Positions 21,784 to 44,204 of a DNA stretch of 52,659 nucleotides are shown in pieces. Every line of letters begins with the position of its first letter. Positions within the stretch are counted from its first letter, which is position 1. The notes beneath the pieces were generated by a model, which was not told the origin of the DNA, did not search any database, and worked only from the letters and a program-made list of their open reading frames with translations. This DNA comes from Myxococcota bacterium. GTDB taxonomy: Bacteria; Myxococcota; Myxococcia; Myxococcales; Myxococcaceae. The position numbers were made by a program, and so were the translations under genes. The DNA lies in contig JBMORE010000185.1 in the NCBI GenBank assembly GCA_049322255.1, positions 1 to 52,659 on the forward strand. Reading direction: 5' to 3'.

Positions 21784-22485
21784 TTACTTGAAGAACTTGG
21801 TGACGTGCACCTGCTTCTGGGTGTCGACCTCGAAGCGCGGTGTGCTGGACGCGGACGCCTGGATGCGGGTGTGCGCCTCCTTGTGCACCTCCTCGGGAGC
21901 CGGCGACGCGTCACGCTTGTACCAGGGGTCGGAGGGGTGGGTGACTGCCGGCCCCTTGAGCAGCTTGGGGATGTCGTAGACGAAGCCCTGCCGGGTGTAC
22001 TCCGAGGGGGTGTGGGTGTACGTGTCCATGCGAATCGCGTCCTTGGGGCAGGCGTCGACGCACAACCCGCACACGATGCAGCGCAGCTCGTCGATGACGA
22101 ACTGGGTGGGGAATTTCTCAATCACCCGCGAGGCGCTCTGGGGGACCGCGTCCTCGTACTCCCCGGCTTCGATGTAGATGCACTGCGCAGGGCAAATGGT
22201 GGCGCACATGTAGCAAGCCACGCAGCGCGGCTTTCCGTCCTCCCGCGGCACCAACCGGTGCAGCCCCCGGTAACCAGGCGGGTAAGGGACTTTCTCCTCG
22301 GGGTACTGCACGGTGGAGACCAGGTTGGTGCCGGTGCGGTCCACCACGCTGGGGTTCATGTCGCGGGTGCCGAAGAGGTTGCGCAGGAAGTGGCGGGTGG
22401 TCACCGCCAGCCCGCGCAAAAGCTCGGGGAGGAACGTGCGAACGCGAACGTCTTCGGTTTCGCTGTGGACGGGCTTGAAGGACAT
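21784..22485 (-). CDS. nuoI: NADH-quinone oxidoreductase subunit I (set 1)
   Basis: [24 protein letters not shown] and [12 protein letters not shown]. Confidence 0.93.
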
Positions 22486-22500
22486 GAGCCGTGTGGAACC

Positions 22501-23856
<1,356 letters not shown>

Positions 23857-23858
23857 CG

Positions 23859-25541: not shown

Positions 25542-26755
25542 TGCTCGACCTCGCCGCCGATCATGTTGATGGTGTCGAAGGTGGGGATGAGGTCGGCAAG
25601 CATTCTGCCTTCGATCATTCGGCTCACCCCCGAGAGAATGGCGAAGCCCGGCGCGCGCACGTGGACCTTGTAGGGCCGCCCGCTGCCGTCGCTCACCAGG
25701 TACCATCCCAGCTCGCCGTTGGCGGCCTCGGTGCTGTCGTAGACCTCTCCGGCAGGCACCTGCACCCCCTCCATGATGAGCTTGAAGTGCGCCATCACTC
25801 CTTCGATGGTGCCGTACACCTCGGGCTTGGGCGGAAGCACGATGCGCCAGTCGTCGATGATCACCGGCCCCTCGGGCAGCTGTTCGAAGGCCTGCCGCAC
25901 GATGCGCATCGACTGCTTGAGCTCCTCCAAGCGCACCAGGTAGCGGTCGTAGTTGTCGCCGTTCTTCCCCAGCGGCACGTCGAACTCGAGCCGGTCGTAA
26001 ACCCAGTACGGTTTGGCCTTGCGCACGTCGTAGGCCACTCCGCAGGCGCGCAGGCAGGGGCCGGTGAAGCCGAAGTCGAGCGCGTCACGGTCGGTGATCA
26101 CCCCGGTGCCCTTCATGCGATCGACGAAGATGCGGTTGCGCGTGAGCAGCGTGTCGACCTCGTCGGCCAGGGAGGCAATCTTGTCGAGAGACTTGAGGAC
26201 CTTGTCCTTCCAGCCGTCGGGTAGGTCGCGGTTGAGCCCCCCCACCCGGCCGAAGGTGGTGGTCAGCCGCGCCCCAGTGAGCTCGGTGATGCGATCGATG
26301 ATCAGCTCTCGCGCTTCGATGCCGTAGAGGAAAGCGGAGAAGCCGCCCAGCTCGAGGCCGATCGCGCCGATGCAGGTGAGGTGGTCGGCGATGCGGTGCA
26401 GCTCGCTGCCGATGACGCGGATGTATTGGGCCCGCTCGGGAACCGTCAGACCGATGAGCTTTTCGACCGCGTTCAAGAAACCGAAGTTGTTCATCAACGC
26501 CGAGACGTAGTTGAGCCGGTCGGTGTACGGCAGGCACTGCGTCCAGGTGACGTTCTCGCAGCTTTTTTGGAAGCCGCGGTGGAGGAAGCCAATCTCCGGG
26601 TCGGCGCGGACGATGGTTTCACCCTCCAGCTCGACCTTCATCCGCACGGTGCCGTGCATCGCCGGGTGCGAGGGCCCTAAGTTGACCACCATGTGCTTGG
26701 TGGGCAGGTGCGCTTCGAGCTCGCTCTCGGGCGGGTTGGGGTCGTAGTCGGCCAT
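25538..26755 (-). CDS. nuoD: NADH-quinone oxidoreductase subunit D (set 1)
   Basis: GPSHPAMHG, GFLHRG, DRLNY, TGARLT, EAANGELG; no NiFe CxxC pairs. Confidence 0.94.
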   Translation of the reverse strand: MADYDPNPPESELEAHLPTKHMVVNLGPSHPAMHGTVRMKVELEGETIVRADPEIGFLHRGFQKSCENVTWTQCLPYTDRLNYVSALMNNFGFLNAVEKLIGLTVPERAQYIRVIGSELHRIADHLTCIGAIGLELGGFSAFLYGIEARELIIDRITELTGARLTTTFGRVGGLNRDLPDGWKDKVLKSLDKIASLADEVDTLLTRNRIFVDRMKGTGVITDRDALDFGFTGPCLRACGVAYDVRKAKPYWVYDRLEFDVPLGKNGDNYDRYLVRLEELKQSMRIVRQAFEQLPEGPVIIDDWRIVLPPKPEVYGTIEGVMAHFKLIMEGVQVPAGEVYDSTEAANGELGWYLVSDGSGRPYKVHVRAPGFAILSGVSRMIEGRMLADLIPTFDTINMIGGEVEQ

Positions 26756-26764
26756 GGAGGTAGG

Positions 26765-27298
26765 TCAGGCGACGCCGCTGGTGCCGGGGCCGCGGAAGAT
26801 GTCTTTGAGGGGGCGTTCGGGAATGAGCGGCTGTCGTTCCCGTAAAGCATAGTCCTTGCGCAGCGGGTGGCCCTTGAACTCCTCGTATAGAAGGATGCGC
26901 CGCAGGTCGGGGTGCTCGGTGAAGCGGACGCCGTAAAAGTCCCACACCAGGCGCTCCCACCAGTTGGCGCCCTGGTAGATGCCCGCCAGGCTGGGGATTT
27001 CCGGCTGGTCTTCAAAGACGCGCACCTTGAGCCGCACGTGCTCGTTACGCTTGAGCGAGTAGAGGAAATAGACGACCTCGAAGCGCGGCGTGGGCTGGGG
27101 GAGGTTCAGCCGATCCACCGCGTCGGCGGAAAGGAAGAGGGAGAAGTCGAGCTCAGGAGCGTTCTTGAGGTGGCTGGCCACCTCGCACAAGCGCTCGGCA
27201 CGAACGACCGCCCACTCGGCCCCGGTGCGGTCGAAATACCGCTCGGAGAAGGCGTCGGGGAACAGCTCGGCGACCTTGTCCAACGCGAACTTGCTCAC
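26765..27298 (-). CDS. nuoC: NADH-quinone oxidoreductase subunit C (set 1)
   Basis: [40 protein letters not shown]. Confidence 0.93.
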   Translation of the reverse strand: MSKFALDKVAELFPDAFSERYFDRTGAEWAVVRAERLCEVASHLKNAPELDFSLFLSADAVDRLNLPQPTPRFEVVYFLYSLKRNEHVRLKVRVFEDQPEIPSLAGIYQGANWWERLVWDFYGVRFTEHPDLRRILLYEEFKGHPLRKDYALRERQPLIPERPLKDIFRGPGTSGVA

Positions 27299-28043: not shown

Positions 28044-28099
28044 ACGCCATAGATCCTCCGGCCGCGTCGCGCGTTCAAGCCTCTCGCACGGAGGAAACC

Positions 28100-29643: not shown

Positions 29644-29757
29644 ACTCGGCCAACACCATTGCACCCAGAATGCCATCTCCTGTTCGGCTTTCCTCGGGAG
29701 GGTCGGGCGAAAGTCGATTCTGGGTGCAATCGTGTTGGCGCCCGTCGGTTGCCGAGT
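29644..29757. repeat. Long imperfect inverted repeat / hairpin
   Basis: 29649-29671 GCCAACACCATTGCACCCAGAAT matches the reverse complement of 29717-29739 at 22/23; further inner and outer pairings are possible. Confidence 0.75.
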
Positions 29758-29810
29758 GGAGTCGAGGGCCGGCCCCGAATCGATGGAACGGTCCACACGC
29801 CCTCCGAGGT

Positions 29811-30228
29811 TCACGAACGCTCGTCGGGAACGATGCGGAGCTCAGTGGAGCGATCAGCAATGCTTAGCCGGCGCCAGGCGGCATAAAAGAGCGCAAGCGT
29901 CGCAGATGCGCTGCCCCAAAAGAGCACCACGCTTCCCATCGTGTTGGCGTCGATGGTTTGCCGAACCAGTCCGACGGTGCACCCAGCGATGGCACCGAAC
30001 ACCGCGGCGGGGAAGCGCCGAGTGCTGGGCAGAGAATGCCGCGCTCTGGAGGTCCTCTTCGCTCATCAACAGGCCCGTCGGAGTTGCGCCAGCCGAGCCC
30101 GTGCCCTCCGCAGTCACCACCAACCTCGCGCCACAAGCACACGTTCGATCGACCCGTACTTCCGATGACGACTCGAGGTTGCGACTCTGCGCAGTTCTGA
30201 TGAGTGAGAACAACCCCCACAGTCCCAT
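29811..30228 (-). pseudogene. Possible frameshifted small membrane-protein gene downstream of nuoB
   Basis: GGAG RBS plus ATG 16 nt after the nuoB stop. Frame A reads MGLWGLF...RTCACG...SAQHSA; the +1 frame continues with two TM-like segments (FPAAVFGAIAGCTVGLV; GSVVLFWGSASATLALFYAAW). Confidence 0.35.
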
Positions 30229-30243
30229 GTGGAATGCTCCGGT

Positions 30244-30813
30244 CTACTTGTTCAACTTGTTCATGTCGGCGAGCAGGTCGTGCGCGCCGGGACGCAGCGG
30301 GGGCTGCCGCTCGACCAGCTTGTGGGTCTGCCGGGAGATCTTGTCCTGCAGGAGCATGAGACCGTCGAGCACCTGCTCGGGCCGGGGCGGGCACCCGGGG
30401 ATGTACACGTCGACTGGAATGATGCGGTCGATGCCCTGGGACACCGCGTAGTTGTCGTAGAACCCACCCGAGCTGGCGCACACCCCGAACGCCACCACCC
30501 ACTTGGGGTCGCACATCTGCTCGTAGACGCGCTTCAAAATCGGCGCCTGCTTCATGTTGATGGTACCGATGACCATCAAGAGGTCGGCCTGGCGCGGGCT
30601 GAAGCGGGGGAACTCGGCTCCGAAGCGCGCGATGTCGTAGCGGCTGGCGGCGACCGACATGTACTCCATGCCGCAGCAGGCGGTGGCGAAGGGATAGGTG
30701 AACAGCGAGTACTTGCGCGCCCAGCCCAGGCCCTTGGAAACCATCTTCTCGAAGAAGCCCATCGCCTCTTCGCGGCGGGTCGCCAGCACAGGCGTGATGT
30801 CGAGCTCGGCCAT
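30244..30813 (-). CDS. nuoB: NADH-quinone oxidoreductase subunit B (set 1)
   Basis: [35 protein letters not shown]. Confidence 0.95.
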   Translation of the reverse strand: MAELDITPVLATRREEAMGFFEKMVSKGLGWARKYSLFTYPFATACCGMEYMSVAASRYDIARFGAEFPRFSPRQADLLMVIGTINMKQAPILKRVYEQMCDPKWVVAFGVCASSGGFYDNYAVSQGIDRIIPVDVYIPGCPPRPEQVLDGLMLLQDKISRQTHKLVERQPPLRPGAHDLLADMNKLNK

Positions 30814-30816
30814 CGT

Positions 30817-31188
30817 TTAGCTCTCCCAGGTGAGCGCGCCCTTCTTCCACACGTACAAAAGCCCAGCGACCAGGGTGGCGGCGAACACCGCCATCTCAGC
30901 GAAGCCAAACCACGCCAGCTCTTTGAAGCTCACCGCCCACGGGTAGAGAAACACCGCCTCCACGTCGAAGACGATGAAGAGCAGGGCGACCACGTAGAAC
31001 TTCACCGCGAAGCGCTGGCGCGCGCTGCCGATCGTCTCCGAGCCGCACTCGAAGGTCTCCGACTTGGTCGCGCTCGGCCGCGTGGGGCCCAAGATCGAGG
31101 CGATGCCGGTGATGGCCACCGCCAAAAGCCCGGCGACCAGGAGGACGACCGCCAGCGGGATGTAGGGCTCCAGGGGGTTGGGCGCCAT
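30817..31188 (-). CDS. nuoA: NADH-quinone oxidoreductase subunit A (set 1)
   Basis: FECG, KFYVVALLFIVFDVE..FLYPW, WKKGALTW. Confidence 0.94.
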   Translation of the reverse strand: MAPNPLEPYIPLAVVLLVAGLLAVAITGIASILGPTRPSATKSETFECGSETIGSARQRFAVKFYVVALLFIVFDVEAVFLYPWAVSFKELAWFGFAEMAVFAATLVAGLLYVWKKGALTWES

Positions 31189-31287
31189 GGGCGCGGGAAG
31201 ATGACACGGCTTCCAAGTGCTTGACAACAAAGGGCGTACCTGAAATCAACCCCGCGGTTTCGCCCTGTGCGCGTGAGGTGAAAAATC
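31189..31287. promoter_or_regulatory. 99-bp divergent control region shared by the two nuoA genes
   Basis: Head-to-head nuoA genes; contains TTGACA at 31221 and an IHF-like site at 31214-31226. Confidence 0.6.
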
Positions 31288-31737
31288 GTGCAGTTCGACT
31301 TCGCGATGGTGCTGGTCTTCGTGGTCGCGGCGGTTGGCTTTGCCATCGCCAACCTGGTGATCGGCTACTTCCTGCGGCCCCGCTTCCCCAACCCCGAGAA
31401 GGACATCATCTACGAGTGTGGCGAGCGGCCGATCGGCAGCGCGTGGATCAACTTCAACCCGCGCTTCTACATCATCGCCCTGGTGTTCGTGATCTTCGAG
31501 GTGGAGATCGCCCTCACCATTCCGGTGGCGCTGGTCTTCCGCAAGTGGGTGTACGAGCACCAAGGCATGACCGCCCTGTGGGAGATTTTGGCCTTCGTCG
31601 CCATTCTCTTCACCGGCCTGGTGTGGATTTGGGCGCGCCGTGACCTCGAGTGGGTGAAGAAGCTCGAAAACGACCAGGAGCCCGCGCCCGCAACGGCTGG
31701 CGTGTCGTCGCCCCGTTCCTACGTGGAGAACGTCTGA
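31288..31737 (+). CDS. nuoA: Complex I-like subunit A (set 2)
   Basis: [36 protein letters not shown]. Confidence 0.92.
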
Positions 31738-32309
31738 TGGCTACGCTCGACGAGAAGAAGGGCTACGCGCACGATCCAGGAGCCTCCACCGCCCTGGTGA
31801 CCACCCACACCAACGTGCTGGAGAACCTGATCAACTGGTCGCGGCGCTCCTCGATGTTCTACCTGCTCTTCGGGCTGGCCTGCTGCGGCATCGAGCTGAT
31901 GCAGACCGGCGGCCCGCGCGCCGACTTGGACCGCTTCGGCTCGGTGCCCCGCGCCACTCCACGCCAGAGCGACTTGATGATCGTCGCCGGCACGCTCACC
32001 TACAAGATGGCGCTGCGCTGCAAGCTCCTCTACGAGCAGATGGCCGAGCCGAAGTACGTCATCTCCATGGGTTCGTGCGCCAACTGCGGAGGCCTCTTCC
32101 AGCTCGCGTATTCGGTCTGCAAGGGCGTGGACAAAATCATCCCCGTCGATGTCTACGTGCCCGGTTGTCCTCCGCGGCCGGAGGCGCTCACCGAGGGCTT
32201 CTTGCGCATTCAGGAACTCATTCGCCGCGAGACCTTGAAGCAGAAGTACCGCCCCTCGCTCGGGCCTGCCGACACCGGCGCGGGCTACGTCGTTCCGGAG
32301 AGGGTCTAA
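31737..32309 (+). CDS. nuoB: Complex I-like subunit B (set 2)
   Basis: [42 protein letters not shown] overlap with nuoA. Confidence 0.95.
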
Positions 32310-32312
32310 AAG

Positions 32313-32927
32313 ATGCCCGCCCTCACCTCGGAGCAGATTCACGCCAAGCTCGCCGCCAAGTTCGGCGAGGCGGTGGGCACGCTGACGGCGGCGAAGGACC
32401 CGTTCTGCGTCTTCAAGAAGGAGAGGGTGGAGGAGATTTTCCGCTTCCTCCACGACGAGCCTGAGCTGGCCTTCGACTTCCTGCAAGACGAGACGGCCAC
32501 CGACCACCCCAAGGAGGGGCTCGTCCGCGTCGTCTACCACTTCTATAGCTACACCCACCGGCACCTGTTCGTGGGCAAGGTGGAGCTGGACCGCACCTCG
32601 CCCGAGCTGGCCAGCGCCGAGCCGGTGTGGAAGGCAGCCAACTGGATGGAGCGCGAGATCTACGATCTCTACGGAGTGACCTTCACCGGGCACTCCGACC
32701 TGCGGCGCATCTTGCTACCCTACGACTGGGTGGGGCACCCCTTGCGCAAGGACTACTCCGAGGCCGGCGGCTACCGCGACATCTCCAACGTGCGGGACAA
32801 CCCGCTCGATTTGTATTTGAACCTCGACCGGCAAATTCGCGCGGCGAAAGAGGAAGCGCGAGATGCCGCTTCGCCGCCGTCGATTGCCCCCGCTCCTCAG
32901 CCGGCGGCTCCTAAGGCGGAGGGCTGA
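32313..32927 (+). CDS. nuoC: Complex I-like subunit C (set 2)
   Basis: [24 protein letters not shown]...GHPLRKDY. Confidence 0.93.
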
Positions 32928-32929
32928 CC

Positions 32930-34096
32930 ATGGCGCTCGACCAGCTGCTCATCACCAAGAAGTTCGGGCCCGATGCGGACCAGGAGATGATCCTCAACAT
33001 GGGGCCGCAGCACCCCTCGACCCACGGGGTGATCAACTTCATCGTTCAAGCCGACGGCGAGATCATGAAGAAGGCGGTGCCCGAGGTCGGGTACCTGCAC
33101 CGCTCGATCGAGAAGATCGGCGAGACGGTGACCTACTCCGGCTTCATGCCGTACACCGACCGCATCGACTACATCGCGGCGATGTTCGCCAACGAGGGCT
33201 ACGCGCTGGCGGTGGAGAAGCTTTTGGGCATTCGCGCCCCCCCGCGGGCCGAGTACCTACGCGTCATTTCCTGCGAGCTCAACCGCATCGCCAGCCACCT
33301 CATCTCGGTGGGGACGATGGCGATGGACATCGGCGCGGTGACCCCTTTCCCCTACGCCTTGCGCGAGCGGGAGAGCATCAACGACCTCATCGAGGCGCTG
33401 TGCGGCGCGCGGCTCACCTACAACTACCACCGCATCGGCGGAGTGGCCTTCGACATGCCGCCCGACTGGGTGCCTCTGTGCCACAAGTGGCTCGACCACT
33501 TCGACAAGATTCTCGACGAGTGGGACCGGCTGATTTCGGGCAACGAGGTGTTCGTGCAGCGGCTGGCGGGGCTGTCAGTGATTCCCGCCCAGATGGCGAT
33601 CAACTACGGCCTGGTGGGACCTAACCTGCGCGCCTCGGGGGTCGACTTCGACCTACGCAAGGTGCACCCCTACAGCGCCTACCCCGACTTCGAGTTCAAG
33701 ATTCCGGTGGGGAGGGCGTACGGCGGCAAGCACCGCGGCGCGGTGGTGGGTGACTGCTACGACCGGTTCTATTGCCGCGTGCTCGAGTGCCGCGAGTCGG
33801 TGTCCATCGTGCGCCAGGCGCTCAAGAAGCTCCCGGGCGGCGAGTACATGGCCAAGGTGCCGAGGAAGATCAAACCGCCCGCGGGCGAGGCACAGTCCCG
33901 CGTCGAGTCGGCTCGCGGGGAGATGGCGTACTACGTCGTCTCCGACGGCTCGGAGCGCGCATACCGGGTCCGTGCTCGCACTGGTTCCTTCCTGGCGATG
34001 GGGATCATCGAGGAGCTCTCCAAGGGCCTGATGATCGCCGACTTGGTGGCGCTGATTGCCTCCCTCGATGTCGTCGCCCCGGAGATCGACCGCTAA
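32930..34096 (+). CDS. nuoD: Complex I-like subunit D (set 2)
   Basis: [32 protein letters not shown]-terminal EIDR. Confidence 0.94.
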
Positions 34097-34099
34097 GCC

Positions 34100-35371
34100 A
34101 TGCACGAGACGCTCGACACCTTCATCCGCGAAACGCTGCAGCAAGACCCGTCGACTTGGCCTTTGACCCAGGGCGTCTACCTGGTGGCGATGATGGTCAT
34201 CGGTGTGGCGCTCACCACCTTCGGTGCGGTGTTCGCCGGCATCGTCTCCTTCTGGGAGCGTCGCGTCGCCGGCCGCATGCAGTCGCGCATCGGCCCTAAC
34301 CGCGTGGGCCCGGGTGGGTTTCTCCAGTGGGTGGCGGACGCGCTCAAGCTGATTCTCAAGGAGGACTTGATTCCTGCCGAGTCGGACAAGATCCTCTTCC
34401 GCATCGCGCCGTACTTCGTCATCACCGGCTTCATTCTCACCTTCGTGGTGCTGCCGTTCGGTTACCACCTGAGCGCGACCCAGATGAACGTAGGGCTGTT
34501 CTACGTGGTGTCGATCACCTCGCTGGTGGTGGTGGGCATTCTCGTCTCCGGTTGGGCGTCGAACTCAAAGTGGTCGCTCTTCGGAGGCATTCGCGCCGCG
34601 GCGCAGGTGGTGAGCTACGAGATTCCGGCGGGCATGGTGATTCTGGTGCCGATCATCATGGCCGGCTCGCTCAACATGCATGAAATCATTCGCCAGCAGG
34701 GCGGGGCGCCGTGGGACTGGTTCGTCTTCCAGACCCCAATGGGTTACGCGGCGTTCTTCATTCTCTTCGTGGCGTTGCTCGCGGAAGGAAACCGCACTCC
34801 CTTCGATCTTCCAGAGGCGGAGAGCGAGCTCGTCTCCGGCTACAACACAGAGTACTCGGGCATGCGCTTCGGGTATTTCTTCCTCGCCGAGTGGGGGAAC
34901 CTCTGGGTGATGAGCGCCATTCTCACCACGCTCTTCCTCGGTGGGTGGCAGGTGCCGGGCATCTCGGTGGCGCAGCTTACCCAGTGGGAAGCGGGCAACG
35001 CGGTGCCGGTGTGGTTCTACATTGCCTCGGCGATCGTCTTTTGCACCAAGGTGGTGGTGCTGGTGAACGTGGTCATCTGGATTCGGTGGACCTTCCCCCG
35101 CATTCGCGTCGACCAGATGATGTCCTTGTGTTGGAAGTACCTGGTGCCCATCGGCTTGGGGCTGGTGATTTTGGCTGCGTTCACCGAGGTGCTCTCCTTC
35201 CAGCTGTTCGGAGAGGCGGCGAAGGGGCAGGCGCCCTTGGCGAGCGCGCGCGGGGTGCTCCATTTCCTCTTCTTTGTCGTGGGCGGATTGCTCCCGATTG
35301 CGGCCTTCGTCATGAAGACTTTCCAAAACATCCGCCTCACCGGGGAGCGGGTGGACTTGAGCAACTGGTAG
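34100..35371 (+). CDS. nuoH: Complex I-like subunit H (set 2)
   Basis: ERRVAGRMQSRIGPNRVG, KEDLIP, AAQVVSYE, NRTPFDLPEAESELV.GY.TEYSG, RWTFPRIRVDQ. Confidence 0.94.
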   Translation: MHETLDTFIRETLQQDPSTWPLTQGVYLVAMMVIGVALTTFGAVFAGIVSFWERRVAGRMQSRIGPNRVGPGGFLQWVADALKLILKEDLIPAESDKILFRIAPYFVITGFILTFVVLPFGYHLSATQMNVGLFYVVSITSLVVVGILVSGWASNSKWSLFGGIRAAAQVVSYEIPAGMVILVPIIMAGSLNMHEIIRQQGGAPWDWFVFQTPMGYAAFFILFVALLAEGNRTPFDLPEAESELVSGYNTEYSGMRFGYFFLAEWGNLWVMSAILTTLFLGGWQVPGISVAQLTQWEAGNAVPVWFYIASAIVFCTKVVVLVNVVIWIRWTFPRIRVDQMMSLCWKYLVPIGLGLVILAAFTEVLSFQLFGEAAKGQAPLASARGVLHFLFFVVGGLLPIAAFVMKTFQNIRLTGERVDLSNW

Positions 35372-35385
35372 GAGCGATAAGACCG

Positions 35386-36285
35386 ATGCCCGTCGCCAAC
35401 TACGTCGGCAACATCAAGGACACGGTGAAGAGCGCCTGGGAGGGGATGAGCATCACCCTCTCCTACATGTTCCGCCGCCCGATGACCGTGCAGTACGCCG
35501 GCCCGGAGGAGGCGCGGCGCACCGGGGAGCTCATTCAGAACACGATGCCCTCGCGCTACCGCGGCTTCCTCGAAGTGGACATGGAGATTTGCACTGCCTG
35601 CCAGGCTTGCGAGCGGGCCTGTCCGATCAACGTCATCGCCATCGAGATCGAGAAGGACCCGTCCAACCCCAAGCAGCGGGCGATGACCCGCTTCGACATC
35701 GACGAGGCCAAGTGCATGTACTGCGGCCTGTGCGTCGAGCCGTGTCCCACCGGCGCCATTCAGCACACCAAAGAGTTCGAAGGCGCCCAGCGCTTCCTCT
35801 CCAACATGGTGTTGCGCTTCGTCGACCCGGCCAGGCCGGTGGCGCCTTACAAGCCGCCCAAGGGAGCGACGGCGTTTCCTCGGGTGATGCTGGGAGAGAT
35901 TACCCGCGGGCTGGTCAAACGGTGGGACTCGCCGCCGCCGCCGTTCCCGGTGGCCGGCACTGCGGCTCCGGTGGCAAAGAAGGACTCTGGCGACAGCAAG
36001 GCGCTGGCGCTCGAGCTGGCGAAGAAGGCGATCGGCGTCGATACCAAGAAGCTCGCCGCCATCCTCGAAGAAGCCCAGGCCGGCACCGACTGCGGCGCGT
36101 GCACCTACCCCACCTGCCGCGACTACTCGGAGGCGATGGCTTCAGGCAAAGAGAAGCGCCTGCACATGTGCGAGCCCGGCGGCGCCGAGAGCGCCCGCGC
36201 CACCCACATCATCATGGACTCGGTGAAGGCCGGGGCGGTGACGGTGACTCCCGAGGCGGAGAACGCCAAGTACGAGAGCCCGTAG
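35386..36285 (+). CDS. nuoI: Complex I-like subunit I fused to a C-terminal RnfB-type Fe-S domain
   Basis: TVQY, RYRG, CTACQACERACP, CMYCGLCVEPCP; then a Pro/Ala linker and DCGACTYPTC-x17-CEPGG. Confidence 0.9.
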   Translation: MPVANYVGNIKDTVKSAWEGMSITLSYMFRRPMTVQYAGPEEARRTGELIQNTMPSRYRGFLEVDMEICTACQACERACPINVIAIEIEKDPSNPKQRAMTRFDIDEAKCMYCGLCVEPCPTGAIQHTKEFEGAQRFLSNMVLRFVDPARPVAPYKPPKGATAFPRVMLGEITRGLVKRWDSPPPPFPVAGTAAPVAKKDSGDSKALALELAKKAIGVDTKKLAAILEEAQAGTDCGACTYPTCRDYSEAMASGKEKRLHMCEPGGAESARATHIIMDSVKAGAVTVTPEAENAKYESP

Positions 36286-36310
36286 GTCCAGTCTAAAAGT
36301 CGGTTGCCAA

Positions 36311-36410
36311 NNNNNNNNNNNNNNNNNNNNNNNNNNNNNNNNNNNNNNNNNNNNNNNNNNNNNNNNNNNNNNNNNNNNNNNNNNNNNNNNNNNNNNNNNN
36401 NNNNNNNNNN
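36311..36410. other. Scaffold gap (100 N) flanked by an exact 127-bp duplication (assembly artefact)
   Basis: 36184-36310 is identical to 36411-36537. Confidence 0.9.
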
Positions 36411-36519
36411 GCCGAGAGCGCCCGCGCCACCCACATCATCATGGACTCGGTGAAGGCCGGGGCGGTGACGGTGACTCCCGAGGCGGAGAACGCCAAGTAC
36501 GAGAGCCCGTAGGTCCAGT

Positions 36520-37146
36520 CTAAAAGTCGGTTGCCAAACCCACCATTCCTCCCGAGGGCGTCGGCATCGCCACCGGTCGAATGCTCTTGGCGACATTGCT
36601 CAAGTGACTCTCTTCCAGCCAGTGCGCTGGAAGGATGATCATGACAAGAGGTGCGGCGAGGAGCAGCGGGAAGAAGAAGATCCCCGGGATGAGCAGAGCG
36701 ACGCCGAAGAGAGCGCCCTTGATGGCTGTGCTCCAGTCGCCAGTTCCATTCAGCGCCTGGTGGAGCGCCAAGGCTCCGAACCCCGCCGAGCACGCTATCG
36801 CCAGCGCCGACCCTCCCGCGAACACCAGCATGAATGCGAGCCGTTCGAGCGTGCCGCCACGCCCTGCAACAGACCCCATGAAGCCCAAGGCGAAGTAGAG
36901 CCCGGTGGCGGCACCCGCGGCAAAGGCGGTTGCGCCGAGCGTGGAAACCGTGACCCGAAGGAGCGAATAACGTTCGAGGTTCGCCGCCGACGGGGCCGGA
37001 GCTCGAGCAGCCGGGGCAACTGTCTCGTCAGCGGGCTGGCCCACGTCCGAGGGCAACGGTGGCGGCGAGAGCGGAGCGAGCGGGCCGTTGGCAAACGCCG
37101 CGCCGGAAAGAAGCAGGGTGGTGGCAAGAATTGGAACGGTTCGCAT
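36520..37146 (-). CDS. Hypothetical membrane protein (signal peptide, Pro-rich linker, Gly/Ala-rich TMs), antisense within the nuo set 2 cluster
   Basis: MRTVPILATTLLLSGAAFA signal; several hydrophobic segments; C-terminal PVAMPTPSGGMVGLATDF. Confidence 0.6.
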   Translation of the reverse strand: MRTVPILATTLLLSGAAFANGPLAPLSPPPLPSDVGQPADETVAPAARAPAPSAANLERYSLLRVTVSTLGATAFAAGAATGLYFALGFMGSVAGRGGTLERLAFMLVFAGGSALAIACSAGFGALALHQALNGTGDWSTAIKGALFGVALLIPGIFFFPLLLAAPLVMIILPAHWLEESHLSNVAKSIRPVAMPTPSGGMVGLATDF

Positions 37147-37310
37147 GCTGGGCAATCAGGCAACAGGCTTGCCCCGTACTTTACGACGCGGATTCAAGGC
37201 CTTGTACGGGGAATGCCGCTCCATGTGCAGCGGCCTTCTTGGCGTCTTGTGCGAGCGCTTGCTCATCGAAGGGATTAGAAGGCCCTCGGAAAGTCGCTCA
37301 CAAATCGCTT

Positions 37311-37323
37311 TAAGCGCTTGATT
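37311..37323 (-). promoter_or_regulatory. IHF-consensus site upstream of nuoJ
   Basis: TAAGCGCTTGATT is the exact reverse complement of WATCAANNNNTTR. Confidence 0.45.
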
Positions 37324-37357
37324 TTCCTCGCGCTTGCGGCGAAAAGCGCACCTCCTG

Positions 37358-38020
37358 ATGGCTGACGACAACGTGAAGAAGCCAGAGCGATCGACGCACT
37401 ATGCGGAGATCCTTGGCGGGCTGCTCTTGATGGCCTTCTTGGTGGCGGTGGTGTTCTGGGGCGCAGCGAAGATGCTCCCGGGCATGGCGCCAGTGGCGGC
37501 GAAGGGCGCCGAGCTGGCCAAGCCCACCGACTTGCTCTTCTTCCTCATCGCCGGAGTGACGATGGTGTCGGCCGCCGGCGTGGCCTTTTCGCGCAACATC
37601 ATCTACTCAGCGCTCGCGCTCCTGGGCGCGCTCTTGGGCACCGGGGCGCTCTACATTTTCTTGAACGCCGACTACGTGGCCATCACCCAGCTGCTCATCT
37701 ACGTCGGCGGCGTGCTGGTGCTCATTCTCTTCGCGGTGATGCTCACCAATCGCATCGATGAAAAGAAGCAGTCGAACCCGATGAGCAACGTCTTCCCTGG
37801 TCTGGGGCTCTTGGGCGCGCTGCTGCTCCTCTTTGGATTTATCGCGGCGAAGGCGCCCTGGAAGCTGGGCGACGCAAAGCTCTCTGTCAGCTCGACGGTG
37901 GACAAGATCGGCGACCTCTTCTTGGGGCACTACCTGCTCGCCTTCGAGGTCATCTCGCTGCTCTTGCTCGCCACGCTCATCGGCGCGGTGGTCATCGCCC
38001 GCAAGGAAATCAAGGAGTAG
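37358..38020 (+). CDS. nuoJ: Complex I-like subunit J with an extra N-terminal hydrophobic helix
   Basis: RNIIYSAL, QLLIYVGGVLVLILFAVML, YLLAFEVISLLLL..LIGAVVIARK. Confidence 0.92.
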   Translation: MADDNVKKPERSTHYAEILGGLLLMAFLVAVVFWGAAKMLPGMAPVAAKGAELAKPTDLLFFLIAGVTMVSAAGVAFSRNIIYSALALLGALLGTGALYIFLNADYVAITQLLIYVGGVLVLILFAVMLTNRIDEKKQSNPMSNVFPGLGLLGALLLLFGFIAAKAPWKLGDAKLSVSSTVDKIGDLFLGHYLLAFEVISLLLLATLIGAVVIARKEIKE

Positions 38021-38022
38021 CC

Positions 38023-38337
38023 ATGGTGACCATCGGGCTGCCTCACTTCCTCATCGTCGGCGCAGTGCTCTTCGCCTTCGGCACCTACACCGTCGTCACT
38101 CGCTCCAACGCGGTGGGCATCTTGATGGGCGTCGAGCTCATCTTGAACGCCGCCAATCTGAACTTCGTGGCCTTCAACCGCTTCAACCCCACGCCGCATT
38201 TGAGCGGTCAGGTCTTCAGCCTATTCGTCATCGTGCTGGCGGCGGCGGAGGCGGCGGTGGCGCTGGCCATCGTGCTCGCCATCTACATGAACCAGAAGAG
38301 CATCGACGTCTCCGAGGCAGACACCTTGCGGGAATAG
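38023..38337 (+). CDS. nuoK: Complex I-like subunit K
   Basis: LMGVELILNAANLNFV and LAAAEAAVALAI; both conserved Glu present. Confidence 0.95.
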   Translation: MVTIGLPHFLIVGAVLFAFGTYTVVTRSNAVGILMGVELILNAANLNFVAFNRFNPTPHLSGQVFSLFVIVLAAAEAAVALAIVLAIYMNQKSIDVSEADTLRE

Positions 38338-38340
38338 CGA

Positions 38341-40872
38341 ATGAACATCTTCTTTGCGCTCAATGAATTGGTGCTGGCGTCGGGAGCCCACGCCCCTGCC
38401 GCCGCTCCACACTCACCACAGGAAGTCGTCCACGTCGGGTACCTGTGGCTCATTCCGCTCTTGCCCCTGCTCGGCTCGGCGGTGAACGCCTTCGTCGGCC
38501 ACAAGCTGCAGAAGCTCTACGGGAAGAAAATCACCTCGCACATCGCCATCGGCGCGATGGTGGGTGCGTTCGCGGTGGCAGTGGTGGCCTTCGCGCAGAT
38601 GCTCTCGCTGCCTGCGGAGCAGCGCTACCTCTCCGACTTCGTCTTCAACATGTTTACCGCGGGCGACGTGCAGGCCGACCTGGCGTTCGCCCTCGACCCG
38701 CTGTCGATGATGATGACGCTGATCATCACCTTCATCGGTACGCTCATTCACATCTACTCCACCGGGTACATGGCGGACGAGCCGGCCTACTGGCGGTTCT
38801 TCTGCTACCTGAACCTCTTCGTCTTCTCGATGCTCCTGTTGGTCATGGGAGACAACTTCGTCCTCATGTTCTTCGGCTGGGAGGGCGTGGGGCTGTGCAG
38901 CTACCTCTTGATTGGGTTCTGGTACGAGGACAAGGAGAAGGCGCAGGCGGGCGTCAAAGCGTTCGTCACCAACCGCTTCGGCGACTTCGGCTTCGTGCTC
39001 GGGCTGTTCCTTCTCTTCTGGGCGCTGGGCGGCAGCTGGACCAAGGAGGACAACGTTCTGCCTGCGCGCGAGGCGGTATGGGCGCGTAGCGACCCCGCTT
39101 ACGTGCCGCAGGTCGAGAGCGGAACCGTCTATCGGAAGGACCTCGCGTACGCGCCGAGGCAGCCTCCTTCTACCTATGCCGAGGTGGAGGCGCAGAAGGG
39201 CGAGGGCGGCAAGTGGCAGGCAGGCCCGGCGGCGGCGGTACGGGCCGGTCTCAAGGTCGGCCCCACGCTCAACTTCCGGGAGCTACGCGATCAGGTCGTC
39301 ATCGAGGCGACCGGAGTGAAGAAGCGGCTCCTCGGGATGGAGTTCCTCGGCATTCCGCTCCTGGCGCTGGTGGGCATTCTCTTCTTCGTCGGCGCCACCT
39401 CGAAGAGCGCGCAGATTCCGCTGTACGTGTGGCTGCCGGACGCCATGGCCGGCCCCACGCCGGTGTCGGCGCTCATCCACGCGGCCACCATGGTCACCGC
39501 CGGCGTCTACATGGTGGCGCGGCTCAACTTCATCTTCTCCCTGTCCCCGATCGCGATGACGGTGATTGCCGTCACCGGAGCGGCCACCGCGATGTTCGCC
39601 GCCTCCATCGGGTTTTTGCAGCACGACATCAAGAAGGTGCTGGCGTACTCCACGGTGTCGCAGCTGGGCTTCATGTTCATCGGCGTCGGCGTGGGCGCCT
39701 ATTGGGCCGGCGTCTACCACTTGCTCACCCACGCCTTCTTCAAGGCCTGTCTCTTCTTGGGCTCGGGCTCGGTGATCCTCGGCTGCCACCACGAGCAGGA
39801 CATGCGGAAGATGGGCGGCCTCAAGAAGTACATGCCGCTCACCGAGAAGACCTACCTCTACGCCTGCATCGCCATCGCCGGCTTCCCCATCGCCAACGGC
39901 TTCTTCTCCAAGGATGAAATCCTCTGGAAGGCGTTCGACTCGGGGAGCAACCTGCTCGATCCCACCATCGGCAAGGTCATTTGGTTCGTCGGCTGGCTCA
40001 CCGCGCTGGGCACCAGCTTCTACATGTGGCGCAGCTACTACATGACCTTCACCGGCGAGTACCGGGGAGGGGTGGGGCACGGACACGCGCACGCGGATGC
40101 GCATGCTCCTTCGGCTACGCCAGTGTTGGCGACGCACTCGGTGGGGGCGGCGCACGCAGCGACCTTCGACCACGACGTGGGTCACGGCGGCGATTCACAC
40201 GGGCACGGGCACCACGGTGGTACTCCTCACGAGTCGCCCCGGGCGATGACCTGGGTGCTCGCGACCTTGGCCATTGGCTGTTTCCTCACCATCGCCTTGG
40301 GCTTCTGGGCGCCGTTGGGGATTACCCCCGCGCTGGAGCACTGGCTCGAGCCGGTACTTTCGCCTTCGGCCGCGCTGGTCCACGAGCGCAGCCTCAAGCA
40401 GGGGCACGCCCTGGAGTACCTGCTCATTGGTCTTTCAGTGGCGGTGGCGTTCGGCGGCTGGCTCATCGCCCGCGCGCTCTACAAAGACGCCAAGAGCACC
40501 GTGCCGGCAACGCTGGCGGCCAAATTCCCGCGGGTGCACCGAGTCGTCTACAACAAGTATTACGTCGACGAGCTGTACCAGAAGACGGTGCTCGCGGGGG
40601 CGATGGTCATCGCCAAGGCCTCCAGCGCGTTTGACCGCATCGTCATCGACGGTGCGGTGGGTGCGGTCGCCGCCGTCGGCAGGTTCGTGTGCAACATCGA
40701 GGGCGCGATCGACAAGTACCTGGTCGATGGTGCGGTGAACTTCGTCGCCGACACCGCCCTGCGGTCTGGCAAGGCGATTCGCCGGCTTCAGACCGGGCGT
40801 ATTCAGCACTACCTCTACGCGGCGCTCGCCGGCGCACTGATTGTCGCCGGCATCAACTTCCTCATCCGGTAG
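38341..40872 (+). CDS. nuoL: Complex I-like subunit L (843 aa; loop insertion, His-rich loop, extended lateral helix)
   Basis: GWEGVG, NRFGD, KSAQIPLYVWLPDAMAGPTPVSALIHAATMV, DIKKVLAYST, FFSKDEI, YYVDELY...LQTG. Confidence 0.95.
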   Translation: MNIFFALNELVLASGAHAPAAAPHSPQEVVHVGYLWLIPLLPLLGSAVNAFVGHKLQKLYGKKITSHIAIGAMVGAFAVAVVAFAQMLSLPAEQRYLSDFVFNMFTAGDVQADLAFALDPLSMMMTLIITFIGTLIHIYSTGYMADEPAYWRFFCYLNLFVFSMLLLVMGDNFVLMFFGWEGVGLCSYLLIGFWYEDKEKAQAGVKAFVTNRFGDFGFVLGLFLLFWALGGSWTKEDNVLPAREAVWARSDPAYVPQVESGTVYRKDLAYAPRQPPSTYAEVEAQKGEGGKWQAGPAAAVRAGLKVGPTLNFRELRDQVVIEATGVKKRLLGMEFLGIPLLALVGILFFVGATSKSAQIPLYVWLPDAMAGPTPVSALIHAATMVTAGVYMVARLNFIFSLSPIAMTVIAVTGAATAMFAASIGFLQHDIKKVLAYSTVSQLGFMFIGVGVGAYWAGVYHLLTHAFFKACLFLGSGSVILGCHHEQDMRKMGGLKKYMPLTEKTYLYACIAIAGFPIANGFFSKDEILWKAFDSGSNLLDPTIGKVIWFVGWLTALGTSFYMWRSYYMTFTGEYRGGVGHGHAHADAHAPSATPVLATHSVGAAHAATFDHDVGHGGDSHGHGHHGGTPHESPRAMTWVLATLAIGCFLTIALGFWAPLGITPALEHWLEPVLSPSAALVHERSLKQGHALEYLLIGLSVAVAFGGWLIARALYKDAKSTVPATLAAKFPRVHRVVYNKYYVDELYQKTVLAGAMVIAKASSAFDRIVIDGAVGAVAAVGRFVCNIEGAIDKYLVDGAVNFVADTALRSGKAIRRLQTGRIQHYLYAALAGALIVAGINFLIR

Positions 40873-40878
40873 ATCTCC

Positions 40879-42570
40879 ATGACCAACCACCTGCTCAGCC
40901 TCATCATCTTCCTTCCGCTCGCCGGGGCGGCGCTCATCGCGCTCACGATGGCCCTGCCGATGGCCAAAGAGGTGCGAGACAACGCCTCGCGGTGGCTCTC
41001 CCTCCTCGTCTCCGCCCTGGCGATGCTCGGCGGCCTCTACCTCTGGACGAGCTACACCGGCGGCGGAGTGCAGTACGTCGAGCGCTTCACGTGGATTCGC
41101 TCGCTGGGCATCGAGTACTACGTGGGGGTCGACGGCATCAGCGTGTCGATGGTCATCCTCTCCACCCTCGTCTCCTTCATCGCCACCATCGCCTCCATGC
41201 CCTGGTGGAAGGGCGCCAAGGAGCACGACGACCCGCACCACCCGCACTTCTCCCAGGTGAAGGTGCCCGGCTACATGGCGATGCTGCTCATCCTCCAGAC
41301 GGGCATGAGCGGGACCTTCGCCGCGCTGGACATGTTCCTCTTCTTCGTCTTCTGGGAGGTCATGCTCCTGCCGATGTACTTCCTCATCGGCATCTGGGGC
41401 GGGCCGCGCAAGGAGTATGCGGCGATCAAGTTCTTCCTCTACACCCTGGCCGGCTCGGTGCTGCTGCTCCTCGCGATCATCGCGCTCCACTACAAGAGCG
41501 GGGATTTGGGCCTGCTCGCCAAGCTGCGCGAGTCCAACCCGATGGCGTTCGCCGCGCTTCTCGACGGGAAGGCGTTGGTTCAGGGGCCAGACGGCGCGCT
41601 CGGCTACCTCCTGGGAGACGGCGCCTTCGTCCCCCGTACTTTCGACATGGTGGTTTTGGCCAAGCTGGGTCAAAGCAGCTTGTTCGACTTGGTGGGCCCG
41701 TTCCTCTTCGGCGTCACCTTCGCCAAGTTGATGTGGGTGTTCATGTTCATCGCCTTCGCGGTGAAGGTGCCGATGGTGCCCTTCCACACCTGGCTCCCCG
41801 ATGCCCACGTCGAGGCGCCCACGCCCATCTCGGTCATCCTCGCCGGGGTGCTCCTCAAGATGGGCATCTACGGCATGCTCCGTTTCAACTGGGCGATGCT
41901 CCCTGGGGCGACGTCGGCCTTCGCCACCTTCGTGGCGGTCTTCGGGGTCATCAACGTCGTCTACGCGGCGATGGTTTGCCTGGCGCAGAAGGACTTGAAG
42001 AAGCTGATCGCCTACTCCTCGGTGTCGCACATGGGCTTTTCGCTCCTCGGCATGGCGGCGATGACCGAGGCGGGCATCAGCGGAGCGGTGCTCAACCTCT
42101 TCACCCACGGCCTCATCAGCCCGATGCTCTTCCTCATCGTGGGCGTCATCTACGACCGCGCCCACCACCGGGAGATCGAGGGCTTCGGCGGGATCGCCAA
42201 GGTGGTGCCCGAGTACACCGCGGTGATGGGCCTGGCCTTCTTCGCCTCCCTGGGCCTGCCGGGCCTGGCGGGCTTCGTGAGCGAGTTCATGGTGCTCAAC
42301 GGCTCGTTCATGAACCTGCCGTGGCACACCGCGCTCGCGGCGCTCTCGGTCATCATCACCGCGGCCTACTACCTGTGGACGGTGCAGCGCATGTTCCTGG
42401 GCAAGCTCAACGAGAAGTACGCCGAGCTTCCCGACTTGAACTGGCGCGAGCGCTTCACCCTCTACCCGCTGGCGGCGCTCACCTTGGTGTTCGGGTTCTA
42501 TCCGAACGTGATGCTCAACCTCATCAACTCGGACTTGTACAAGCTGCTTCGGGTGGTGAAGGGGGCGTAA
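40879..42570 (+). CDS. nuoM: Complex I-like subunit M
   Basis: FWEVMLLPMY, AVKVPMVPFHTWLPDAHVEAPT, LLKMGIYG, LIAYSSVSHMG, GFVSEF. Confidence 0.95.
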   Translation: MTNHLLSLIIFLPLAGAALIALTMALPMAKEVRDNASRWLSLLVSALAMLGGLYLWTSYTGGGVQYVERFTWIRSLGIEYYVGVDGISVSMVILSTLVSFIATIASMPWWKGAKEHDDPHHPHFSQVKVPGYMAMLLILQTGMSGTFAALDMFLFFVFWEVMLLPMYFLIGIWGGPRKEYAAIKFFLYTLAGSVLLLLAIIALHYKSGDLGLLAKLRESNPMAFAALLDGKALVQGPDGALGYLLGDGAFVPRTFDMVVLAKLGQSSLFDLVGPFLFGVTFAKLMWVFMFIAFAVKVPMVPFHTWLPDAHVEAPTPISVILAGVLLKMGIYGMLRFNWAMLPGATSAFATFVAVFGVINVVYAAMVCLAQKDLKKLIAYSSVSHMGFSLLGMAAMTEAGISGAVLNLFTHGLISPMLFLIVGVIYDRAHHREIEGFGGIAKVVPEYTAVMGLAFFASLGLPGLAGFVSEFMVLNGSFMNLPWHTALAALSVIITAAYYLWTVQRMFLGKLNEKYAELPDLNWRERFTLYPLAALTLVFGFYPNVMLNLINSDLYKLLRVVKGA

Positions 42571-42578
42571 GTCACATT

Positions 42579-42614
42579 CCCTCACCCTTGCCCTCTCCCT
42601 TCGGGAGAGGGGAG
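42579..42614 (+). repeat. REP-like palindromic element, copy 2, between nuoM and nuoN
   Basis: CCCTCACCCTTGCCCTCTCCC-TTC-GGGAGAGGGGAG; 9-bp perfect GC-rich stem. Confidence 0.8.
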
Positions 42615-42620
42615 ATTGAC

Positions 42621-44204
42621 ATGAACCACGTCCTCAACAACGTCGAGAGCCTGGCGTTCTTCGCCCCGGAGATCGTCCTCACCGCAGGGGCGATGGCCAT
42701 CTTCGTGCTCGACCTAGGCCTCAAGAATGCGCCCAAGCGGGTCGGCATTCTCACCGGGGCGAGCCTGGTCGTTCTCGCCCTTGCCACCCTAGCCACCTAC
42801 TGGTCGACCCAGCTGACCTACGTGGTCGACGGCCAGGCGTACACCGCCATCCAGCAGCCGATGGGTTTGTTCAACGGGCTCATCGTGCTCGACCCCTGGG
42901 CGGTGTTCTTCAAGTACCTCTCGTGGGCGGTCACCGCCTTGGCGATCGTCATCGCCGCACCCTCGTTGGAAATCTCCTCCGAGCGCATGGGCGAGTACTG
43001 CGCGATGCTCTTGGCCATCGCCGTCGGCCTGTCGCTGATGGCCAGCTCCACCGACATGCTGATGATGGTCATCGGCGTCGAGCTGGTGTCGATGGTCAGC
43101 TACGCACTGGCGGGCTTTCGTAAGCACCACCGCCGTTCCTCCGAGGCCGCGCTCAAGTACGTGGTCTACGGCGGCGTGGCGAGCGGAATGATGCTCTTCG
43201 GCATGAGCTGGCTCTACGGGCTCATCGGCACCACCAACGTGGTGGGCGCCGCCGGCCGCATCAACGAGTACGGCGAGAAGGTCTATTTGCAGCTGCTCCA
43301 GACCGGCTCGGAGGGCGCCGGACGCGTGGCGCTCATCGTGGCCATCGTGCTCATCCTCTCGGGCATCGGGTACAAGATTGCCGCGGTCCCCTGGCACATG
43401 TGGTGCCCCGACGTTTACGAAGGAGCGCCCACCCCGTTCACCGCCTTCCTCTCGGTGGGTCCCAAGGCCGCAGGCTTCGCCTTGGCGGTGCGGGTGCTCT
43501 ACGGCGCGATGAGCGAGAGCGGCGGACAGGACTTGGCCACTGTGTTGCGCGACGTTCCCTGGCCGGAAATCATCGGGGTGCTCGCCGCGGTGACGATGAC
43601 CGTGGGCAACTTCGCCGCGCTCAACCAGACCAATGTGAAGCGCATGCTGGCTTACAGCTCGATCGCTCACGCCGGTTACCTTTTGATGGGTCTGGCGGCG
43701 GCCTCGGCGACCGGATCAGAGTCGATCGCCATCTACCTGGTGGTCTACCTGTTCATGAACCTGGGGGCCTTCCTGGTGGTGGGGACGGTGGGGCGGCTAG
43801 CGGGGTCAGAGTCGATCTTCGAGTACCGAGGCCTCTCCGCCCGTGCGCCCTTCGCCGCGGTGGCCTTTGCCATCTTCCTCTTCTCGCTCACCGGCTTGCC
43901 GCCGCTGGCGGGCTTCGTGGGCAAGTTCCACCTGTTCAAGGCGCTCATCGATCGGGGAGAAGCCTGGCACGTCACCTTGGCCCTCATCGGTGTCCTCAAC
44001 AGCGCGGTGTCGCTCTACTATTACGCGCGCATCGTCAAGGCGATGTTCCTCGACAAGCCAGCCAACACCGCCCGCATTCCCGTGCCGAAGTCGTACAACT
44101 TCCTGCTCGGGTTTTTGGTGGCGGCGGTGATTGGCCTCGGGGTCTACTTCGAGGGGCTGCGCACGCTCGCTGGGGCCTCGGTGCACCTGTTCGGTCATTC
44201 TTAA
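42621..44204 (+). CDS. nuoN: Complex I-like subunit N
   Basis: GVELVS, SEAALKY, YKIAAVPWHMWCPDVYEGAPTP, GPKAAG, KRMLAYSSIAHAGY, GFVGKF. Confidence 0.95.
   Translation: MNHVLNNVESLAFFAPEIVLTAGAMAIFVLDLGLKNAPKRVGILTGASLVVLALATLATYWSTQLTYVVDGQAYTAIQQPMGLFNGLIVLDPWAVFFKYLSWAVTALAIVIAAPSLEISSERMGEYCAMLLAIAVGLSLMASSTDMLMMVIGVELVSMVSYALAGFRKHHRRSSEAALKYVVYGGVASGMMLFGMSWLYGLIGTTNVVGAAGRINEYGEKVYLQLLQTGSEGAGRVALIVAIVLILSGIGYKIAAVPWHMWCPDVYEGAPTPFTAFLSVGPKAAGFALAVRVLYGAMSESGGQDLATVLRDVPWPEIIGVLAAVTMTVGNFAALNQTNVKRMLAYSSIAHAGYLLMGLAAASATGSESIAIYLVVYLFMNLGAFLVVGTVGRLAGSESIFEYRGLSARAPFAAVAFAIFLFSLTGLPPLAGFVGKFHLFKALIDRGEAWHVTLALIGVLNSAVSLYYYARIVKAMFLDKPANTARIPVPKSYNFLLGFLVAAVIGLGVYFEGLRTLAGASVHLFGHS

Follow-up and report, generated by a model that had tools for sequence, protein, structure and literature searches.

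What does a myxobacterium that already has a canonical NADH-dependent complex I do with a second, smaller one, and what supplies it with electrons? The question is raised by a Myxococcota bacterium of the Myxococcaceae (NCBI GenBank assembly GCA_049322255.1), whose contig JBMORE010000185.1 was analysed over positions 1 to 52,659 of the forward strand; this stretch of 52,659 nucleotides is referred to as the window. Positions 31288..44204 encode eleven subunits of the second complex. Both the type of enzyme and its placement have been described before; the complex has its own ancestry and is likely a forward ferredoxin:menaquinone proton pump. The new element is the fusion of an RnfB-like domain to NuoI, which is apparently unreported. 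What donates electrons to 11-subunit complexes has long been debated, and an Fe-S domain fused to NuoI offers a handle on the question.

An intact operon of eleven genes

The operon consists of eleven plus-strand genes in the order A-B-C-D-H-I and then J-K-L-M-N, and each product matches its own Pfam family (Table 1). Gene calls and Pfam searches revealed no nuoE, nuoF or nuoG within it. Neighbouring genes overlap by 1 bp or are 2-50 bp apart, with the exception of nuoI and nuoJ, which are separated by 1,072 bp. This spacer contains a scaffold gap of 100 N, a 126-bp duplication and a single orphan open reading frame (ORF) on the minus strand. A public contig runs from 36183 to 36411 without interruption, indicating that the gap and the duplication are an assembly artefact. 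In relatives, the nuoI-nuoJ gap is filled by different genes.

Alignment to the E. coli subunits was used to inspect the residues that we take to be the catalytic and axis positions of complex I. The N2 ligands are present in NuoB (C49, C50, C114 and C144), as are H32, Y81 and D133 in NuoD, E71 and E73 in NuoA, E38 and E76 in NuoK, E181, K355, K468 and K524 in NuoL, E160, K296, K327 and E469 in NuoM, E155, K253, K283 and K436 in NuoN, and the acidic residues of NuoH. The first-pass annotation of this DNA had described an intact eleven-gene complex without nuoE, nuoF or nuoG that keeps its quinone-site, N2 and K, L, M and N residues; the Pfam matches, the gene order and the alignments confirm that description. 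An extra Fe-S domain, a longer NuoL helix and enlarged loops, which it also listed, are each present. The C-terminus of NuoD2 contains no CxxC, that is, no NiFe cysteine pair by the criterion given in PMC3144371. The models for the F420H2 dehydrogenase subunits FpoC, D, H, I, K and L all score below cut-off, in a search that did not include FpoF. The C-terminal extension of NuoH2 and the N-terminal extension of NuoJ2 each have a hydrophobic stretch and may add a membrane helix.

The NADH module is unlikely to be borrowed

The genome (4.85 Mb, 99.6% complete) contains a single nuoF. Its six antiporter-like genes are split equally, three to each complex. The canonical nuoEFJKLMN genes lie on a separate contig (C31). 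The first-pass annotation mentioned neither these genes nor the canonical nuoABCDGHI cluster that runs in the opposite direction from 31188. One alternative is that the second complex borrows the only NuoEFG, that of the canonical enzyme, and serves as an NADH:menaquinone isoenzyme. Here and in many relatives, the operons stand head-to-head with 99 bp between them, and each of five relatives checked also has one nuoF, both in favour of a shared NADH-binding module (N-module); such sharing was raised as a possibility for Syntrophobacter (Spero et al., PMC4453560). However, the architecture of NuoD argues against borrowing. In 52/52 NuoD proteins whose gene is followed by nuoE, nuoF or nuoG, the C-terminal part carries an insert of about 25 residues, compared with 0/76 of those followed by nuoH; 3 further NuoD of unknown gene context have no insert. 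The insert is found in NuoD1 but missing from NuoD2. Moreover, E, F and G are absent from 59 of the 62 long-helix operons visible from D to L, and the sister clade is formed by green sulfur bacteria, most of which lack nuoEFG in the table of PMC3362086. Borrowing is unlikely, and an NADH:menaquinone isoenzyme is accordingly an improbable identity for the second complex.

Ancestry and distribution

A Chlorobium-like nuo cluster back-to-back with a myxobacterial one was reported from Anaeromyxobacter dehalogenans 2CP-C (Thomas et al. 2008, PMC2330069). Because this is the same cluster in the same position, the operon type has already been described at the operon level, and the proposal of an undescribed system does not hold. 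At E 1e-110 or below, 67 of the 201 Myxococcota genomes contain a NuoD of the second-complex type. In a class-level sample, the operon is present in 32/33 genomes of family f2 and in 6/95 of family f1, the latter denominator including one unpublished genome. The family names are inferred: f1 is Myxococcaceae by homologue labels, and f2 groups with Anaeromyxobacteraceae loci. The host thus belongs to a family (f1) in which the second complex is uncommon. Related operons were also found in records of Binatia, Eisenbacteria, Planctomycetota and Bdellovibrionota, and the head-to-head placement of both nuo operons recurs across many loci.

Phylogeny supports a separate ancestry for the second complex. 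The clade is sister to the 11-subunit group of green sulfur bacteria, with support in the Shimodaira-Hasegawa-like approximate likelihood ratio test (SH-aLRT) of 96 for B+D+H and 100 for L+M+N with the helix insert removed. It is nested in a clade without the N-module (SH-aLRT 99, B+D+H). In approximately unbiased (AU) tests of B+D+H, a clade uniting it with the canonical NADH complex of the same genome was rejected (p 0.009), as was one with the Nitrospira-type complexes that have two nuoM genes (2M; p 0.0004). The SH-aLRT and AU values come from quick LG+G4 trees of 34-36 chosen rows; across the analysis, trees used 34-43 chosen rows or left out 21-26 redundant loci. The sister-group genomes belong to the Bacteroidota phylum, and an FMO gene is present in 3/5 checked. 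A placement of NuoM as sister to Nitrospira-type M2, obtained with FastTree, was lost in a quick tree under a mixture model after four 11-subunit NuoM were added, and was set aside as unstable.

An RnfB-like domain on NuoI

NuoI2 consists of a two-cluster core, a Pro/Ala linker and an extra domain. Residues 206-285 match PF04060 (E 2e-8, 34.1 bits against a cut-off of 23) and residues 207-278 match TIGR01944 rnfB (E 6e-17). The best PDB sequence matches are RnfB chains, 7zc6_B (E 0.012) and 8ahx_B (E 0.023), both weak. The pattern is C-x2-C-x4-C-x17-C-x-PGG, and its four cysteines are invariant in 45/45 aligned homologues, chosen among the matches that carry the domain; a [4Fe-4S] cluster is the predicted cofactor. 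AlphaFold models it as a separate confident domain (predicted local distance difference test, pLDDT, 78-94) behind a low-confidence linker. The motif occurs once in 65 of the 119 top NuoI homologues and twice in 47, and is absent from 7. Tandem double domains are seen in loci L011, L102 and L103 as well as in these 47.

Within the clade, the domain is present in 15/47 loci scattered over the tree, and family-f2 NuoI proteins end in an Ala/Pro tail. The domain is a real addition to NuoI, though a dispensable one. NuoI2 carries the only RnfB-like motif in the genome, so no rnfB was found there. A literature search, with subscription papers outside its scope, revealed no description of a NuoI-RnfB fusion. 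In Rnf itself, the FdI domain is described as a mobile shuttle (PMC9588780).

Electron donor and direction of flow

Donor and direction are best read as ferredoxin oxidation in the forward sense, consistent with the ferredoxin-type donor first proposed. The genome encodes one KorA-type 2-oxoacid oxidoreductase, the only POR-family enzyme found, together with an FdxA ferredoxin and a four-motif polyferredoxin. A menB match scored above cut-off, and the futalosine route to menaquinone was not found in the genome search. The pairing of two complexes with a ferredoxin proposal has precedent in Ignavibacterium and the green sulfur bacteria (PMC3362086, PMC3534657), and a ferredoxin-input model was drawn from rotenone tests in Desulfitobacterium (PMC11238625).

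Electrons released in the oxidation of 2-oxoacids by KorAB would reduce ferredoxin, enter the complex at NuoI and pass through N6a, N6b and N2 to menaquinone, and proton pumping would fall to L, M, N and the H/J/K/A channel. Between the donor and N6a, the RnfB-like domain would serve as a tethered, dispensable relay. From midpoint potentials, transfer from ferredoxin to menaquinone is calculated to support about 3.8-5.7 H+ per 2 e-, and transfer from NADH to menaquinone about 2.7-3.3. The three antiporter types given by the gene count would correspond to about 4 H+ per 2 e-, and an L-M-M-N arrangement to about 5. The raised H+/e- stoichiometry proposed in the first-pass annotation has no second nuoM gene to account for it and would depend on one NuoM being built in twice.

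The distribution of POR-family genes points in the same direction. Across 28 family-f1 genomes, chosen by the analyst and, as kin, not independent, such genes are present in 5/6 with this operon, in 4/4 with another second complex and in 2/18 with the canonical complex only. That other second complex is also an 11-subunit enzyme and lies directly behind korA in 6/7 fetched loci of relatives. By gene linkage, it makes a stronger case for ferredoxin input than the operon studied here. Its genes are A, a fused B-C, D and H-N, with a standard or short helix (L137:2890-16596, L138-L141, L143); the order in L137 is korA-korB-ferritin-like gene-nuoA.

The genome has two heme-copper oxidases, alternative complex III (ACIII) and five E1-type dehydrogenase genes. 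No match to bd oxidase and no anaerobic reductases were found in it, and a single unassigned molybdopterin protein is present besides NuoG and ActB. The two heme-copper oxidases with ACIII, the lack of a bd oxidase match and the one molybdopterin protein make the genome look like that of an aerobic heterotroph. Genes for a group 3b (sulfhydrogenase-type) NiFe hydrogenase are found in this aerobic-looking genome (C144:29506-34211), as is a membrane Fe-S oxidoreductase. The occurrence of the operon here suggests a ferredoxin-based entry to respiration that is retained in some Myxococcaceae of aerobic appearance.

Two other readings concern the donor and the direction. The complex could run mainly in reverse, with the proton motive force driving electrons from menaquinol to ferredoxin for biosynthesis. 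KorAB is a reversible enzyme, and arithmetic on midpoint potentials makes reverse flow just feasible with five pumped protons at about 170 mV; such a role has been proposed for extra-pump complexes (PMC9040806). Yet the genome resembles an aerobic heterotroph with one POR-family enzyme and no second nuoM gene, and it gave no positive sign of such a role, in a search that did not extend to nitrogenase or citrate lyase. Mainly reverse operation is considered quite unlikely. Alternatively, the donor could be a flavoprotein (electron-transfer flavoprotein, flavodoxin or the group 3b hydrogenase) that docks on the tethered NuoI domain. The hydrogenase and the membrane Fe-S oxidoreductase would be candidates, and the RnfB FdI domain is a one-electron mobile shuttle (PMC9588780), but no such gene is linked to the operon in the examined loci and the NuoI domain is absent from 32/47 clade members. 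A flavoprotein donor is also viewed as unlikely.

Several points weigh against ferredoxin as the donor. The korA gene is on another contig, unlinked to the operon. Two operon-bearing genomes (G135, 96%, and G105, 95% complete, both fragmented) gave no POR match, and several genomes without the operon have POR. The association of POR with a second complex (9/10 versus 2/18; Fisher p 7e-5) is overstated by this p value because the genomes are kin and analyst-chosen. Flux through KorAB may be small, since five E1-type dehydrogenase genes are also present. Anaeromyxobacter-type members lack the extra NuoI domain, and AlphaFold leaves its position relative to the NuoI core unfixed (predicted template modelling score, pTM, 0.42). 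That the NuoD insert contacts NuoG or the N-module is our assumption. With these points included, a forward ferredoxin:menaquinone pump is still the probable function.

The NuoL lateral helix and the number of pumps

The long NuoL helix is a shared, unexplained structural feature. In NuoL2, Asp743 to Gln817 spans 74 residues, compared with 48-50 in standard NuoL. Across 205 loci, this span is 74 in 81 and 48-50 in 105. Among the 84 long-helix loci with nuoN visible, 80 have one nuoM, 3 have two (Nitrospirota) and 1 is frameshifted. The doubling is shared by the green sulfur bacteria, indicating that it is ancestral and not a local innovation. Insertions of this kind in non-2M clusters were noted by Yu et al. 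2022 (PMC9040806). A description of helix doubling in Chlorobi was not found in a literature search that left subscription papers outside its scope.

The additional length consists of a second copy of a 26-residue unit. In Paracoccus, D648 docks the NuoL helix on NuoM (PMC9802314). Both units keep both aspartates in 78/78 single-nuoM proteins, with D765, D791 and Q817 spaced 26 + 26. The second unit is divergent in the three 2M proteins from operons with two nuoM genes, with 0-1/11 positions identical against a mean of 6.3. Because both copies of the helix keep the NuoM-docking aspartates, NuoM may be used twice. One NuoM docked twice (L-M-M-N) would fit the doubled motif, and we regard this as a roughly even bet. 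The fuller proposal is more tentative and, as a whole, rather doubtful: that Chlorobium-type 11-gene complexes are four-pump enzymes, in which the helix acts as a ruler for two NuoM copies and about 5 H+ are pumped per 2 e-, and that in this lineage NuoI has captured an RnfB-type mobile [4Fe-4S] domain as a built-in electron shuttle.

For the membrane architecture alone, there is about an even chance that the complex has the usual three antiporter subunits and that the long helix either persists as a relic from a four-pump ancestor or serves as a longer brace. The predominance of a single nuoM in long-helix loci is in line with this, and this genome has no spare nuoM. Four closed family-f2 genomes contain two L/M/N sets and one three-gene antiporter cluster elsewhere. 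A common origin of the long-helix membrane arms, 2M included, was not rejected (AU p 0.14), with the arms not grouped in the best trees, and an "evolutionary transition" is listed as an option by Yu et al. (PMC9040806). There is also no signal in the translation rate of nuoM: its Shine-Dalgarno strength and codon bias showed no clear difference from those of nuoL and nuoN (p 0.055 and 0.46; 54 long and 57 standard operons, which as kin are not independent). A relic or a brace is less readily reconciled with the nearly fixed length of the insert, with four aspartates kept at 26-residue spacing in every single-nuoM protein across phyla, or with divergence of the second unit where two nuoM genes exist.

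Should a single nuoM gene supply both positions, proton pumping estimated from gene counts would be too low across a large family that spans several phyla and includes cultured, tractable hosts such as green sulfur bacteria and Anaeromyxobacter. Use of one NuoM twice would also illustrate a route to extra-pump complexes that needs no gene duplication.

Other forms of the membrane arm were encountered among the loci. In L239 and L244 (G317, G303), the C-terminal span of NuoL reaches 139 residues and so exceeds the doubled form by about 65; extra hydrophobic segments are present, and there is one nuoM. An antiporter-like subunit of Nitrospirota (L105, G151:C6) has a 103-residue helix span with at least 3 repeat units and lies beside two M-like genes. 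In family f14 (L130, L131 and L132; G261, G227 and G277), the operon ends after nuoI and NuoH has 520-590 aa; in G227, antiporter genes are scattered across the genome.

The enlarged loops were considered as part of a coordinated package and ruled out. Across clade members, the span between transmembrane helices (TM) 6 and 7 ranges over 63-206 residues in NuoL, and the NuoM span over 58-112; the canonical NuoL1 and NuoM1 have 102 and 86, respectively. Large loops in L, M and N thus vary several-fold in the clade and are also enlarged in the genome's canonical subunits. With helix doubling ancestral, loop lengths this variable and the Fe-S domain in a minority of clade members, the initial suggestion that the modifications are coordinated is not supported.

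Features of the window

Coordinates are given in Table 1. The hexamer upstream of nuoA2 is kept in most of 10 aligned relatives. A scan with the sigma-70 consensus gave no full match, promoter and terminator scans gave nothing beyond chance, and no FNR-like box was seen by eye.

Table 1. Positions of the second complex I operon and associated features in the window (aa, amino acids)
Feature	Position	Strand	Detail
canonical nuoC1, D1, G1, H1, I1	21784..27298	-	G1 25541-23859; H1 23856-22501
canonical nuoA1-nuoB1	30244..31188	-	divergent from nuoA2, 99-bp spacer
TTGACA hexamer	31222..31227	+	upstream of nuoA2; likely -35 element
nuoA2	31288..31737	+	149 aa; PF00507; acidic pair present
nuoB2	31737..32309	+	190 aa; four N2 cysteines; PF01058; NF011393 above cut-off
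nuoC2	32313..32927	+	204 aa; PF00329
nuoD2	32930..34096	+	388 aa; quinone-site His/Tyr/Asp present; ~25-aa C-terminal insert absent
nuoH2	34100..35371	+	423 aa; 58-aa C-terminal extension; PF00146
nuoI2	35386..36285	+	299 aa; two-cluster core, Pro/Ala linker, extra domain
RnfB FdI-like domain of NuoI2	36001..36240	+	C236, C239, C244, C262; predicted [4Fe-4S]; PF04060, TIGR01944
assembly artefact	36184..36410	.	126-bp false duplication and 100-N scaffold gap; public contig comparison
orphan ORF between nuoI and nuoJ	36520..37155	-	~205-211 aa; matches no family
nuoJ2	37358..38020	+	220 aa; 56-aa N-terminal extension; PF00499
nuoK2	38023..38337	+	104 aa; PF00420; E38/E76
nuoL2	38341..40872	+	843 aa; ~90 extra loop residues after TM6, His-rich loop, doubled lateral helix
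two 26-aa lateral-helix units of NuoL2	40630..40785	+	residues 764-789 and 790-815, each D-x4-DG-x-V; D765 aligns with Paracoccus D648
nuoM2	40879..42570	+	563 aa; sole nuoM of operon; helix-docking H303 and Y379 present
nuoN2	42621..44204	+	527 aa

In the canonical operon, about 2.9 kb (27299-30243) separates nuoB1 from nuoC1; it includes a thioesterase-like ORF and an SH3-domain protein of 361 aa on the plus strand. Other insertions occupy this junction in close relatives, and family-f2 genomes have none. NuoG1 is short (560 aa), and the lateral helix of NuoL1 (C31:15506-17767) is slightly shortened, at 45 versus 53-54 by the same measure. Further along the window, a homospermidine-biosynthesis protein (46715-48238, +) is encoded near a gene (49477-51522, -) that we take, from its sequence, to be arginine-decarboxylase-like; these are ordinary polyamine genes.

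Comparison with known systems

Compared with the 14-subunit NADH:quinone oxidoreductase, the second complex is without both the N-module genes and the NuoD insert. Its nearest described counterpart is the Chlorobium-like cluster of A. dehalogenans 2CP-C, which has the same 11-gene order back-to-back with nuoABCDGHI (PMC2330069). NuoM2 is 62% identical to named Anaeromyxobacter proteins, and family-f2 orthologues share the long helix and the single nuoM. Unlike the f2 proteins, which end in an Ala/Pro tail, NuoI2 ends in the RnfB-like Cys domain, and the host is a family-f1 member in which no anaerobic reductases were found.

The NUO11 complex of green sulfur bacteria and Ignavibacteria (PMC3144371, PMC3362086, PMC4758237) is sister to the clade, with no N-module, no NuoD insert and the same helix doubling with one nuoM. 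NuoD identity to it is about 50%; the loops are larger here, and the extra NuoI domain was not seen in those loci. The 2M complex I of Nitrospira (via PMC9040806) has the same helix length, 74 in the three two-nuoM operons examined. In contrast to it, the second complex has no second nuoM gene, no nuoG and an unrelated quinone module, and both of its helix units keep the docking motif. Finally, the NuoI domain differs from RnfB FdI in being C-terminal, in one or two copies and free of a transmembrane anchor, and shares with the RnfB FdI and corrinoid Fe-S domain (PF04060) the same Cys pattern, flanking helices and flexible linker (PMC9588780).

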